Shown here piece by piece: positions 3,248-18,995 of a stretch of 30,831 nucleotides of DNA. How positions within the stretch are numbered: the first letter of the stretch is position 1; every line of letters starts with the position of its first letter. The stretch is from Oscillospiraceae bacterium. Its GTDB lineage: Bacteria > Bacillota > Clostridia > Oscillospirales > Acutalibacteraceae. The notes under the pieces were generated by a model. It worked only from the letters and a program-made list of their open reading frames with translations. It ran no database searches and was not told where the DNA came from. The stretch spans positions 1 through 30,831 of the forward strand of contig WREG01000001.1 in the NCBI GenBank assembly GCA_009779455.1, written 5' to 3'. The translations under genes and the position numbers were made by a program.

Positions 3248-4574
3248 ACAGGAACCCATAAATTTTTACCATTCATTGCTGAAATTCGGCGTCAATCCCG
3301 GCCTCGAAAGGATTAACGCCCTGTTGTCCCGCCTTGGCAGCCCCCATATTGGCGGGAATTTCGTCCATGTGGCGGGGACAAACGGCAAGGGCAGCGTCTG
3401 CGCGTTTTTGTCGAATATTTTAAAATGCGCCGGGTACAAAACGGGGCTGTTTATCTCGCCGTATATAATGGAATTCAACGAGCGCATACAGATAAACGGC
3501 GAAAATATCCCCGATGCCAAACTTGCGAAAATTACCGTAGAGATCAAAGCGGCGGTTGAAAATCTTAATAAAAAAAATATCTTCCCCACCGAATTCGAGG
3601 CGGTGACGGCGGCGGCAATGCTGTATTTTAAGCGGGAAAACTGCGATGTCGCCGTGCTTGAAACGGGGTTGGGGGGGCTGTTCGACTCCACCAACGTCAT
3701 AGAAGAGCCGCTCGTGTCGGTCATAACGTCGATATCCATGGACCACGCCGAAATTTTAGGGGGCACAAACGGACTCTCCCCTATTATAAATCGAGAGTCC
3801 GTTATAGAAAAGATAGCCGCCCAAAAATGCGGCATAATAAAACCCGGCCGCCCCGTAGTCACAAACAACAGCCAAGACGAAAAAGTTTTAAAAATCATCA
3901 AAAATACGGCAATGGAAAAGAATTCCCCCCTGCTTGTCGCGGCTACAAAAGGAAAACAAGCGTTAAAATCGACAATAGAGGGCAGTTTTTACAACCTTAA
4001 AACTCTCCACTCTCCACTCTCCACTCTCCACTTAAATATCCCCTTCCCGGGCAGGCATCAGCTTGAAAACGCCATTACCGCCGCCCAAGCGGTATGTGAA
4101 TTATGGAAAAACGGCTTTGACATAAAAGACAGCCACATAGAAGCAGGGATAGAAACCGCGAAAAACCCCGCGCGTATACAGATACTTCAAAAAAGCCCGC
4201 TTATAATCCTCGACGGCTCCCATAACGAAGGGTCTGCCGCCGCCCTTGCCGAAGCCATACGCGAAAATCTGGGCGGCAAAAGGCTTTTGGGGCTTATGGG
4301 CGTGATGAAAGACAAGGATTGCGATAAAATGCTTGAAAACCTGTTGCCCCTGTTTTCCGCCCTCATAACCACCCGGCCCGATAACCCGAGGGCGCTGGCG
4401 GCGGAGGAACTCAAAGCCGCCGCGTCATACTATATGCCCCCTGAAAATATTATACCCGTTGAAAACCCGGCGGACGCTTACAGTTACGCGCTGAAAGCCC
4501 TGCCGGGATTCGACGGGTTTATAATCTGCGGTTCCCTTTACCTCGCGGGGGATATTTTAAGAATTGAGAAATAA
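3234..4574 (+). CDS. folC: Bifunctional folylpolyglutamate synthase / dihydrofolate synthase
   Basis: HVAGTNGKGS P-loop, FISPYI, PTEFE, LETGLGG, DSTNVI, DH, HQLENA, ILDGSHN, ICGSLYL. Confidence 0.96.
   Translation: MYINKQEPINFYHSLLKFGVNPGLERINALLSRLGSPHIGGNFVHVAGTNGKGSVCAFLSNILKCAGYKTGLFISPYIMEFNERIQINGENIPDAKLAKITVEIKAAVENLNKKNIFPTEFEAVTAAAMLYFKRENCDVAVLETGLGGLFDSTNVIEEPLVSVITSISMDHAEILGGTNGLSPIINRESVIEKIAAQKCGIIKPGRPVVTNNSQDEKVLKIIKNTAMEKNSPLLVAATKGKQALKSTIEGSFYNLKTLHSPLSTLHLNIPFPGRHQLENAITAAQAVCELWKNGFDIKDSHIEAGIETAKNPARIQILQKSPLIILDGSHNEGSAAALAEAIRENLGGKRLLGLMGVMKDKDCDKMLENLLPLFSALITTRPDNPRALAAEELKAAASYYMPPENIIPVENPADAYSYALKALPGFDGFIICGSLYLAGDILRIEK
3768..3803. repeat. 36-bp palindromic element inserted in frame in folC
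   Basis: AACGGACTCTC (3768-3778), 14-nt loop, GAGAGTCCGTT (3793-3803): a perfect 11-bp inverted repeat spanning exactly 12 codons (NGLSPIINRESV). Confidence 0.85.
4002..4032 (+). repeat. Heptamer tandem repeat (ACTCTCC)x4 + ACT inside folC
   Basis: Read directly from the sequence. Encodes TLHSPLSTLH. Confidence 0.9.
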
Positions 4575-7842: not shown

Positions 7843-7868
7843 GTAGGGGAAGGCCTCGTGTCCTCCCG
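7843..7868 (+). repeat. GTAG-type REP-like palindrome (intergenic, imperfect)
   Basis: GTAG GGGAAGGC CTCGT GTCCTCCC G. Same architecture and the same CCGTAGGGGA...CCCG ends as the copy in iorA. Confidence 0.55.
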
Positions 7869-15854: not shown

Positions 15855-15992
15855 AATTCATAATTCATGATGCATAATTACTGGCTAAAATTAAAGTTTT
15901 ACTATTCTTTATAGGAAATATATAAAATAAAAATTTTTCGATTATATTTAATATCGCACAAATTATGAACTCTGCATTATGCATTATGAATT
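15855..15992. repeat. Inverted pair of TTATG(A/C)A heptamer arrays in the iorA-iorB spacer
   Basis: Minus-oriented aattcat aattcat gatgcat aatta (15855-15880) and plus-oriented ttatgaa ctctgca ttatgca ttatgaa (15963-15990). Confidence 0.85.
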
Positions 15993-17788
15993 GCCTTTGC
16001 GGCGCACACCGTCCCGCAAAGCCCGCAGCCTGTGCAAAGCGTATTATTTATGGTTGCTTTTTTATTTTCAATTGTGATGGCCGGGCAGCCCAGCTTTTTT
16101 ACGCACATTCCGCAACCGACGCATTTTTCTTCGTTTGCGCGGCAGGCTGATTTGCTTTTCAGCAATGTAATGCAGGGCGCTTCGAAAATCACCGCCCTTG
16201 CGCCTTTTTTGCCGATAATATCGTTCAGCGCTTCTTTCGCCGCTTTTTGGTCAAAGGGGTTTACGCTTTTTATGCTGTCTTTTTCCACGCCGCAGGCGGC
16301 AAGCATATCATATATGCTTATTTTCGGAGCGGGTTTTCCCGAAAGCGTCACGCCCGTGCCGGGATGGGGCTGGTTGCCTGTCATGGCTGTAGTTGAATTG
16401 TCGAGAACCGCCACTATTATGTCGCTGCCGTTGTAAACCGCGTTGATAACGCCGGGGATGCCCGTATGAAAAAATGTCGAGTCCCCGATAAACGCAAAAT
16501 TCAGCGTGTCCGGCTCAATCCTGTTTATCCCCTGGGCCACCGTTATGCCCGCCCCCATGCAAAGGCAGGTGTCTACCATGTCGAGGGGCTGCGCGTTGCC
16601 TAACGTATAACAGCCGATATCCCCCGAAAAAACGGCTTTTTTGCCTTTTGCCGCTTCTTTAACCGCGAAAAATGACGCCCTGTGGGGGCATCCGGCGCAC
16701 AACACAGGCGCGCGGGCGGGAAGCGGGGGAAATTCCGCCGTTTCCTGCGTTTCTTCGTTTATTCCGTCTAAAAATGAACGGACTGCGCGGGATACTGTCT
16801 CCGGCGTATTCTCCCCCGCATTCGGCATATGCCCCGTAAGCTTGCCGTTAATTTTAACATTCAGCCCGTGCTTGCCGCAAAGGGTTATAAGCTCCCGCTC
16901 AATCACAGGGTCAAGCTCCTCGGCGACAAGAATCTCTTCAAGGCCGTTTAGAAATTCAAGGGCCAATTTTTCGGGGAAGGGGTAAGCGGAAATTTTTAAC
17001 AATTTGCAATCTGTTTCCTGCGGGACGGTGTGGAAACCGTCCCCTACGGTCAACGCTTCCTGTACATAGGAATAACTTACGCCGCCGCAGGCTATGCCCT
17101 TTTTTCCGGAACCCGTTAATATATTGTTTTTATATAACGATAATTCTTCGCTCATGCTTTTTTGTTTTTTTTCAATTTCAAGATGGTTTGCATAGGCAAG
17201 CCTTGGGAATATGACCCAGCGGCTGTCTTTTATAAAGCCTTCCGGCTCTTTTGCGGGCAGCTCCGGAAGCAGCTCGACTGAAGCGCGGCTGTGGCAGACG
17301 CGGGTTGTGGGGCGCATTATCACCGGCCTGCCGTATTTTTCGGACAAATCGAAAGCGTCGGCCATCATGGCGTAGGCTTCCTCCGGGGTGGAAGGGTCAA
17401 ATACCGCTATTTTCGCAAATTTGCCATAGTGGCGGGTATCCTGCTCCGTTTGGGATGATATGGGACCGGGGTCGTCCGCCGCTACTACCACCATGCCGCC
17501 CTTCACGCCTACATAATTAAGGCTCATCAAGGGGTCTGACGCCACGTTCAGACCGACCTGCTTCATCGTAACCATCGCCCTTGCCCCGGCGTAGGCCGCG
17601 CCCGCCGCCACTTCCATAGCGGATTTTTCGTTGGCCGACCATTCGGCGTGGATGCGCCCGTCATTATTTTTTGCCACCGTCTCCAATATCTCCGACGACG
17701 GCGTGCCGGGATAGCCTGCCGCAAGCCGCAAACCGGCGCGTATCGCCCCGAGGGCTATGGCTTCATTGCCCATTAACAGTTTTTTCAT
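15977..17788 (-). CDS. iorA: Indolepyruvate:ferredoxin oxidoreductase alpha subunit
   Basis: MGNEAIA, GYPGTPSSE, NEKSA.E, CAGCPHR, GDIGCY, TPP motif IGDSTFFHTG...DNSTTAMTG, two C-terminal CxxCxxC [4Fe-4S] motifs. Start MKKLL at 17788. Confidence 0.94.
   Translation of the reverse strand: MKKLLMGNEAIALGAIRAGLRLAAGYPGTPSSEILETVAKNNDGRIHAEWSANEKSAMEVAAGAAYAGARAMVTMKQVGLNVASDPLMSLNYVGVKGGMVVVAADDPGPISSQTEQDTRHYGKFAKIAVFDPSTPEEAYAMMADAFDLSEKYGRPVIMRPTTRVCHSRASVELLPELPAKEPEGFIKDSRWVIFPRLAYANHLEIEKKQKSMSEELSLYKNNILTGSGKKGIACGGVSYSYVQEALTVGDGFHTVPQETDCKLLKISAYPFPEKLALEFLNGLEEILVAEELDPVIERELITLCGKHGLNVKINGKLTGHMPNAGENTPETVSRAVRSFLDGINEETQETAEFPPLPARAPVLCAGCPHRASFFAVKEAAKGKKAVFSGDIGCYTLGNAQPLDMVDTCLCMGAGITVAQGINRIEPDTLNFAFIGDSTFFHTGIPGVINAVYNGSDIIVAVLDNSTTAMTGNQPHPGTGVTLSGKPAPKISIYDMLAACGVEKDSIKSVNPFDQKAAKEALNDIIGKKGARAVIFEAPCITLLKSKSACRANEEKCVGCGMCVKKLGCPAITIENKKATINNTLCTGCGLCGTVCAAKAIHNA
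17021..17047 (-). repeat. 27-bp GTAG-type REP-like palindrome inserted in frame in iorA
   Basis: Minus strand GTAG GGGACGGT TTCCAC ACCGTCCC G: perfect 8-bp stem, exactly 9 codons (VGDGFHTVP). Confidence 0.8.
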
Positions 17789-18995
17789 AATTATGCCCAC
17801 CATTATGTATCATTTTTTTGTTTATTATCGACAGAGCCACAACCAGCGCCGCGCCGGCGGCCGCCAAAACGCCCAGTACGGCGAATTTTAAACGCTGATC
17901 GGCTATTTTATTTATCGCGACCGGGAACAGAAGCGCCGAAAGCATAAACCCGACCATCACCGCGCCGTAGTTAGAGCCGAAATTTTTCATCCCGAAATTT
18001 TCGTAGGTAAGCACAGGGTACAGGCCCGAATAGCCTCCGTAGCAGAAGGCGACCGCCGCAATTATCGCCATCAGCAATATCCCGTTTGCGAAACAAAGGC
18101 CAAAAGCGCCTGAAGCCGTTACCGCGAGGATTATAATGTCCGCTTTTTCCCTGCCGATTTTATCAGACAGCAGCGGCGCGCCGAGCCGTCCCAAAGCGTT
18201 TGCGATACCGGTGAACATAACAAGATAAGTGGCAAAATTTTCAAGCCCCCTGGTTTTCGCGAGGTCCGTTAAATCGGGGTTGATTATAAAGAAAACAGAG
18301 GTGCCGAACATTAAAGACAGAGCGAGCAGATAAAAACGCGGGGTTTTAAGCATTTCGAGGGTCGTGTACTGTTTCTCTTTCAACATCGGCGCGGCCGCGT
18401 TCGCCGCCTGTTCGGGCGTTTTTATAAAATTGAACAATATAAGCACCGCCGCCGCGAAAACTGCCGACAAGACAAGGAATGTGTTCCTGACGCCGAGGTT
18501 TTTATTCATCATAGTCACAAGGGGGGCAAAAATCACCGTAGAAAAGCCGAAAAAACATACGCATATACCTGTTGCGAAGCCCCTGTTTTTCGGAAACCAT
18601 TTCTGTACGTTTGAAACTATGGCGTTATATGCCGCGCCAACACCGAAACCGCCTATAATACCGTAGAAAATATACACGCAGGCGACGGGCGACGTCCCGC
18701 CCGCAGGTATAAGGGCCGTCGCGAGCATACCCGCAGAAACCATTAGGCCGCCTGTAAGCGCGGTCAGCTTTACCCCTATTTTCGTCTGCGCCTTTCCGCC
18801 CGCCAATATCCCTATAACGAAAAAACACAGCATAAACGAAGCTGTAAGGCCTGCATCGGCGGGAGTCCAGCCGTAATACGCGCTGACGGGGTTCTTAAAG
18901 ACGCTCCAGACATATATAATGCCTAAAAACAACTGTAAGAACGCGCCTGTGAACAAAACTTTTAAGCCTTGTTTGTTTTTCCTGATCGCAGACAT
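17763..18995 (-). CDS. MFS transporter, OFA (oxalate:formate antiporter)-like
   Basis: LQLFLGIIYVWSVF, WFPKNRGFATG, NALGRLG, YGGY.GL.P...FG.KNFGSNYG. About 12 TM segments. Confidence 0.85.
   Translation of the reverse strand: MSAIRKNKQGLKVLFTGAFLQLFLGIIYVWSVFKNPVSAYYGWTPADAGLTASFMLCFFVIGILAGGKAQTKIGVKLTALTGGLMVSAGMLATALIPAGGTSPVACVYIFYGIIGGFGVGAAYNAIVSNVQKWFPKNRGFATGICVCFFGFSTVIFAPLVTMMNKNLGVRNTFLVLSAVFAAAVLILFNFIKTPEQAANAAAPMLKEKQYTTLEMLKTPRFYLLALSLMFGTSVFFIINPDLTDLAKTRGLENFATYLVMFTGIANALGRLGAPLLSDKIGREKADIIILAVTASGAFGLCFANGILLMAIIAAVAFCYGGYSGLYPVLTYENFGMKNFGSNYGAVMVGFMLSALLFPVAINKIADQRLKFAVLGVLAAAGAALVVALSIINKKMIHNGGHNYEKTVNGQ

Follow-up and report, generated by a model that had tools for sequence, protein, structure and literature searches.

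The folC gene of an uncultured termite-gut Oscillospiraceae bacterium (Clostridia; Oscillospirales; Acutalibacteraceae) carries a 36-bp perfect palindrome that occupies exactly 12 codons, which raises the question of how hairpin DNA came to lie in frame within a folylpolyglutamate/dihydrofolate synthase and whether it belongs to a dispersed family of elements. The gene lies in a stretch of 30,831 nucleotides (assembly GCA_009779455.1, contig WREG01000001.1, positions 1 to 30,831 of the forward strand), here called the window. An initial annotation of the window had described an 11-bp inverted repeat with a 14-nt loop at 3768-3803, had argued that its removal restores a canonical FolC stretch, and had likened it to Rickettsia palindromic elements (RPEs). 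Our analysis bears out these coordinates and the pairing, which is 11/11 over the stem, and supports an insertion into an ancestral gene. We find no relatives of the inserted sequence in the collections searched.

Position 3768 is a codon start of the folC reading frame (features and coordinates are given in Table 1), and the palindrome is open in this frame, contains no stop codon and supplies residues 179-190. The plus-strand ends and flanks read CACA/AACGG...CCGTT/ATAG (slashes mark the ends of the palindrome), the stem is followed by ATAGAAAAG, the minus strand of the loop includes TATAAT, and the heptamer ACTCTCC occupies bases 3773-3779, that is, part of the left arm and the first base of the loop. 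The arm-gap-arm pattern gave 0 matches in 100 shuffles of the window, and the hairpin has a predicted folding energy of -10.6 kcal/mol as DNA (z -3.6) and -17.1 kcal/mol as RNA (z -2.7). A perfect stem of such length is not rare by itself: the organism's own genome (2.02 Mb in 282 contigs, 82.9% complete) contains 376 perfect hairpins with a stem of at least 10 bp, compared with 39 in a shuffled genome. The loop has 72 look-alikes there (at most 2 differences, substitutions or indels), which are -10-box-like AT-rich sequences with no tie to any repeat.

Stronger evidence comes from the orthologs of FolC, of which a single gene copy was found in the own genome. Orthologs were taken from 40 relatives, none of the same genus (the best is 55% identical), and the best 30, from the same family and order, were aligned. 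All 30 show a gap of exactly 12 residues at the insert, between LG.T and the helix start I/V/L-x-x-IA-x-x-K, and HMMER alignments place the same 12-residue gap in Thermotoga maritima FolC and Lactobacillus casei FPGS (PDB 1O5Z, 1FGS). The insertion point lies between the Thr codon of LG.T and the Ile codon that opens the IEKIA..K helix, and deletion of the 12 residues gives back the canonical motif LG.T/IEKIA..K, as the initial annotation had anticipated. Both ends of the hairpin match both ends of the ortholog gap, for which the chance with a random 36-nt insert is ∼4^-11; it is this coincidence that chance fails to explain. The insert ends are ambiguous by at most 1 nt, and there is therefore no target-site duplication. 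The only other lineage-specific insertions in FolC are residues 258-264 and a Pro-Pro pair (402-403), and a whole-protein search returned no FolC between 53% and 100% identity, the nearest (53-55% identical) being labelled Oscillospiraceae. At the level of sequence, the comparison shows that an ancestral folC gained a 36-bp perfect palindrome in frame and that the palindrome is translated with the gene.

Since the source is a fragmented, low-depth metagenome-assembled genome, we considered an assembly or sequencing artefact, which is barely conceivable given that two different assemblies and the k=31 unitigs of runs belonging to two studies have the same sequence, and that the insert is in frame and stop-free. 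An independent megahit contig in ENA, located via a cluster look-up (L055, 6,235 bp), shares 5,580 bp of identical sequence with the window, palindrome included; the sole difference is one unit fewer in a heptamer tract downstream of the palindrome. The public runs containing the stretch are termite-gut metagenomes, and Logan unitigs of X1 (3569-4030) and X2/X3 (3634-3898) span the palindrome with 0 differences at a word depth of ∼2-7x. X2 and X3 seem to be a double deposit of the same data, leaving at least two termite-gut data sets. No insert-free record is listed among the assemblies and unitigs that cover the site, and in those at hand the insert is fixed.

To place the insert in the protein, we built an AlphaFold2 model of FolC from a 54-sequence alignment (mean pLDDT 91.9, pTM 0.91), which compares with FolC/FPGS structures at TM-scores of 0.83-0.87 (1O5Z 0.83/0.87). 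The drop in pLDDT is confined to the insert region (below 50 at residues 177-182, with block means of 55 and 60 over 171-190), and DSSP assigns coil to residue 186 and helix to 187-201. According to the model, the start of the insert is a disordered loop (∼177-186) and its last four residues would lengthen the N-terminus of the helix, so that the insert falls in a low-confidence, predicted surface loop, the location the initial annotation had expected. The same helix carries the invariant K198, which aligns with the active-site lysine that is carbamylated in Mur-type ligases. The insert site thus lies between the DH motif and K198, and all 70 invariant alignment columns are intact in the query, including the P-loop GTNGKG, D170/H171 and K198. 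We infer that the insert is tolerated, not functional.

A selected function, exerted either by RNA or DNA structure (a site for ribosome pausing, for an RNase or for protein binding, or a promoter that is internal or antisense) or by an adaptive peptide, could draw on the stability of the stem (-17 kcal/mol as RNA), on the TATAAT of the loop and on a site between two active-site motifs. However, promoter and terminator scans are empty at the element, Rfam returned no match, no relative conserves the sequence, and the peptide is predicted to be disordered. We thus consider a selected function very unlikely.

Does the palindrome have copies elsewhere? The initial annotation had proposed a BLASTn search for them, and none came to light: the folC palindrome is single-copy in every collection searched. 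In the own genome, an exact-pattern search returned the folC site only, blastn-short (word size 7) gave no match longer than 13 nt outside folC, and arm-like sequences at ≤1 mismatch were never paired. Across 400 genomes of the order, a scan that tolerated ≤3 mismatches gave 0 copies, and IMG/VR gave 0 matches. A word search with residues 165-204 against 5.8 billion protein clusters returned the protein's own cluster only, with no other FolC carrying a similar peptide. GTDB species genomes contain 23 hairpins with the same arms, all with unrelated loops and mostly flanked by terminator-like A-runs and T-runs, and other phyla are included; we rejected these as copies of the element on the basis of their loops and flanks. 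Three of them, from Clostridia/Ruminococcus, are single-copy in their own genomes, and the one whose context of open reading frames was read (L039) lies between convergent frames.

Several further candidates were rejected. The only match in JGI metagenomes, on a sediment contig, has a short stem and is attributed to chance. An intergenic hairpin of the own genome at C5:2264-2314 (arms AATGAACTCTC / GAGAGTTCATT) matches 9/11 arm bases, and its arm changes fall on both sides with pairing kept; its 29-nt loop is unrelated, and we judged it a chance likeness. Arm pairs at ≤2 mismatches within 6 kb, sought in the own genome as the ends of an insertion sequence, also look like chance, as does a likeness between the loop and the spacer that separates an inverted pair of heptamer arrays on contig C9 (of 72 fuzzy matches genome-wide, 1 is near an array). 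A special class of 36-bp hairpins was sought in the own genome, and the length distribution has no peak at 36.

These searches bear on the idea that the palindrome belongs to a dispersed RPE- or REP-like family colonising genes in this Clostridia lineage. The outcome is that of RPEs and intragenic REPs, the genome has other hairpin families, a Y1 transposase fragment and a GTAG REP in frame in iorA (see below), and ∼17% of the genome is missing; with 82.9% completeness and 282 contigs, a donor could be absent from the data. Yet there are 0 copies or near-copies in the own genome, the 400 genomes of the order, GTDB representatives, IMG/VR and JGI metagenomes, a 36-bp repeat would survive assembly without being lost by collapse, and the element has neither a GTAG nor a CGTC tag. 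Membership of such a family is accordingly improbable in our judgement.

We compared the element with known systems. RPEs, reportedly described by Ogata and colleagues in 2000 and 2002, are multi-copy families of the Rickettsiales with tens of copies per genome, and are mostly longer (∼100-150 bp for RPE-1). Like them, the folC element is palindromic DNA in frame in a housekeeping gene, adds a peptide absent from orthologs (30/30, 1O5Z and 1FGS), leaves the catalytic residues intact and has a predicted surface-loop position. Unlike them, it measures 36 bp, has no sequence relatives and occurs once, in a termite-gut Clostridia genome, with 0 copies in 400 genomes of its order. Likeness to the RPE-1 to RPE-8 consensus is unlikely, because the element is only 36 bp and lacks database relatives. 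The resemblance drawn in the initial annotation therefore stands for the in-frame hairpin and the added loop peptide and lacks support for the element family. RPEs are mentioned in PMC3733652 and PMC10969869. In-frame palindromes, although established in Rickettsia, are not confined to that genus: many species have GTAG/CGTC REPs inside their genes, where they can be translated (Di Nocera, De Gregorio and Rocco 2013, PMC3733652).

The folC element shares with GTAG/CGTC REPs a palindrome within the 20-40 bp range (here 36 bp with an 11-bp stem), the lack of a target duplication and a location inside an open reading frame. In contrast to these REPs, it is untagged and unrepeated, with a perfect stem, a long 14-nt loop and no demonstrated RAYT link: GTAG/CTAC and CGTC/GACG are absent from both ends, and the many copies of REPs, often inverted dimers, have no counterpart. 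From the traits of MITEs it has the terminal inverted repeats (11 bp), but no target-site duplication and no multiple copies. An intrinsic terminator was rejected (not called by the scan; no GC-rich stem with a T run), as was a translational bypass element of the T4 gene 60 or byp type (the frame is open and stop-free, and the insert is not bracketed by a matching pair of codons). A CRISPR repeat, an Xer/dif-like or lox-like site and a sequencing-adaptor hairpin were set aside in view of the single copy, 14-nt spacer, open frame and lack of a sequence match. The folC element is an orphan, untagged, REP-sized palindrome; in outcome it would act like an RPE or intragenic REP, hairpin DNA being read as a predicted surface loop, outside any detectable repeat family.

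We lean towards a hairpin that was pre-formed, was inserted in a single and probably recent event, and has been tolerated as a passenger. DNA that was already palindromic would have entered folC once, the donor piece being a hairpin of REP or MITE size whose transfer leaves the target unduplicated, as in single-strand (HUH/Y1; IS200/IS605-type) transposition; alternatively, a hairpin fragment may have been captured in repair. For the origin taken separately, such a pre-formed unit or captured hairpin DNA is a plausible source, to which we give somewhat less than even credence. As the folC copy is the sole one, only an in-frame, loop-located insertion could survive, and the insert would be a passenger rather than a device, its disordered surface loop and helix N-cap sparing the Mur-ligase core. 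The perfect 11/11 stem suggests that the event was recent or that the arms have been kept identical by template switching at the DNA level.

Template switching during replication could also have made or perfected the palindrome in place, either de novo or by overwriting one arm of an older 12-codon insert. It is a known maker and homogeniser of inverted repeats, including in coding sequence (PMC5453318, PMC8794818, PMC8604942), and coding palindromes have been described in Nematomorpha mitochondria (PMC6649704). Hairpins of this origin resemble the folC element in being perfect inverted repeats in coding sequence with no transposon signature, and the perfect stem and the lack of a target duplication and of a donor copy count in favour of this origin. 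The nearby heptamer tract marks folC as prone to slippage-type events, and ACTCTCC is common to this tract and the left arm. However, template-switch events copy an adjacent template, so that one arm is ancestral, whereas here both arms and the loop are inside the insertion. There is neither a direct nor an inverted template of ≥10 nt within 2 kb, nor one longer than 13 nt in the own genome. Palindrome and heptamers have in common only a CTCTC/GAGAG core and the 7-mer, a likeness judged post hoc with a chance probability of a few percent. With both arms new and no template located, a one-step template switch does not account for the palindrome, and the two-step version needs an unseen intermediate. 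Overall, we regard template switching as a rather unlikely origin, although a more serious contender than a dispersed family.

Several points weigh against the insertion of a pre-formed hairpin as a tolerated passenger. Neither a donor copy nor a related element was found in the collections searched, which is odd for a mobile element, and there is no GTAG/CGTC tag, no target-site duplication and nothing that ties the element to the Y1 gene fragment. Hairpin lengths in long open reading frames give modulo-3 counts of 28/22/16, with no significant excess of multiples of three, and a genome-wide signal of orphan palindromic insertions is absent. The closest relative belongs to another genus, too distant to date the event. 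The run evidence consists of unitigs, which drop rare variants, so that a minor empty-site allele is possible, and the surface exposure of the insert is that of a predicted model.

Table 1. Features of the window and related repeats in other contigs (C) of the same genome
Feature	Position	Strand	Remarks
folC (folylpolyglutamate/dihydrofolate synthase), 446 aa	3234..4574	+	Pfam Mur_ligase_M, Mur_ligase_C; PDB 1O5Z E 1e-64
36-bp palindromic insertion	3768..3803	+	codons 179-190 (NGLSPIINRESV) of FolC
Left arm AACGGACTCTC	3768..3778	+	sequence read
AT-rich 14-nt loop CCCTATTATAAATC	3779..3792	+	sequence read
Right arm GAGAGTCCGTT	3793..3803	+	exact reverse complement of left arm
Tandem heptamer ACTCTCC x4.4 in folC	4002..4032	+	TRF; ∼200 bp past palindrome
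GTAG-headed REP hairpin in iorA (15977-17803)	17021-17047	minus	in-frame insertion, 8-9 residues relative to 14 orthologs
Sister copy of the iorA GTAG hairpin	7843-7868		
Other GTAG hairpins, including REPIN-like dimers	C50:3553-3634, C46:7345-7416, C10:4948-5001, C8:5901-5931, C127:446-479		
Example heptamer arrays	C2:18098-18170, C9:3757-3831, C15:8755-8848, C95:5313-5390, C108:1063-1131, C176:3723-3800		own genome

The window and the rest of the genome contain hairpins of a different kind. A GTAG-headed REP lies in frame in iorA, and the 8-9 extra IorA residues are absent from 14/14 aligned orthologs; the folC palindrome has none of the features of this GTAG family. The genome yields a single match to Y1_Tnp (PF01797), a C-terminal fragment that opens its contig (C209:1-207, L056) and is a possible candidate for the RAYT/IS200-type transposase of the GTAG hairpins. 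In the 700 bp read there (fragment and downstream sequence; the upstream side is not assembled), we found no cognate hairpin and none like the folC element. Perfect hairpins with lengths that are a multiple of 3 also occur in the long open reading frames of a ComEA-like protein (C128:2445-2480), a sulfatase (C21:3372-3407) and an Oxidored_FMN protein (C46:7345-7416); one repeats the 11-14-11 geometry seen in folC, and another is a 72-bp GTAG REPIN. Hairpin and repeat DNA has thus come to be read as protein more than once in this genome.

The second lineage-specific insertion in FolC belongs to a different repeat class. Three extra heptamer units account for residues 258-264 (LHSPLST), where 28/29 orthologs have a 7-residue gap, and in the AlphaFold2 model this insertion sits in a predicted beta-hairpin loop. 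In the independent ENA contig, which has one unit fewer, folC is frameshifted (around 4664 of L055), with products of 264 and 92 aa; the difference could reflect slipped-strand on/off variation or a difference in assembly. Unitigs break at the heptamer tract and do not fix its copy number in the reads. Unitig depth over 4001-4032 in X1-X4 is ∼440-4,300x, compared with 2-7x in the flanks. Since the depth of the tract is far above that of the flanks, ACTCTCC-type repeats are abundant elsewhere in these termite-gut metagenomes, in other organisms or the host.

The folC tract differs by one base from a (CTCTCAA/TTCTCAA)n family that is spread through the genome in arrays of 3-5 units, of which the own genome contains at least 57 by scan (68 pattern matches) and 25 related genomes none. 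Perfect heptamer arrays of any unit number 44 in the own genome, compared with ∼0.01 expected. Most arrays of the family lie in intergenic DNA. They point the same way as the downstream gene, immediately 5' of its ribosome binding site, and inverted pairs are frequent where two genes diverge. The family recalls the short tandemly repeated repetitive (STRR) heptamers that Mazel and colleagues reportedly described in heterocystous cyanobacteria in 1990, which are likewise dispersed arrays of 7-nt units, mostly intergenic and present in tens of copies per genome. The arrays here differ from STRR in their unit (CTCTCAA), in the phylum, in their orientation upstream of the ribosome binding site and in the one array that lies in frame in folC.

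With the iorA GTAG REP and the folC heptamer array both in frame, this lineage demonstrably writes short structured repeats into its genes; these precedents, the REPIN-like GTAG hairpins and the Y1_Tnp fragment, together with the intragenic REPs known from many bacteria, count in favour of the insertion of a pre-formed hairpin in folC. A process common to this termite-gut genus may even have produced the folC palindrome (as the first copy of a new hairpin element that bears no tag, or as a de novo hairpin), the heptamer tract, which could switch the sole folC on and off, and the iorA REP; we put this forward as a long shot.

The locus provides a natural case in which an essential enzyme of the Mur-ligase type apparently tolerates a 36-bp perfect hairpin between two of its active-site motifs, and the insert may be used as a marker of a permissive FolC loop. 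It also illustrates that finding a palindrome inside a gene is not enough to infer a mobile family, even in a genome with true intragenic REPs. The slippage-prone heptamer tract can frameshift the only folC, and the surrounding repeats, including this tract and the heptamer arrays, are possibly a more useful lead than the palindrome. Taken together, our findings describe an uncultured termite-gut lineage that carries several lineage-specific repeat classes entering coding sequence.

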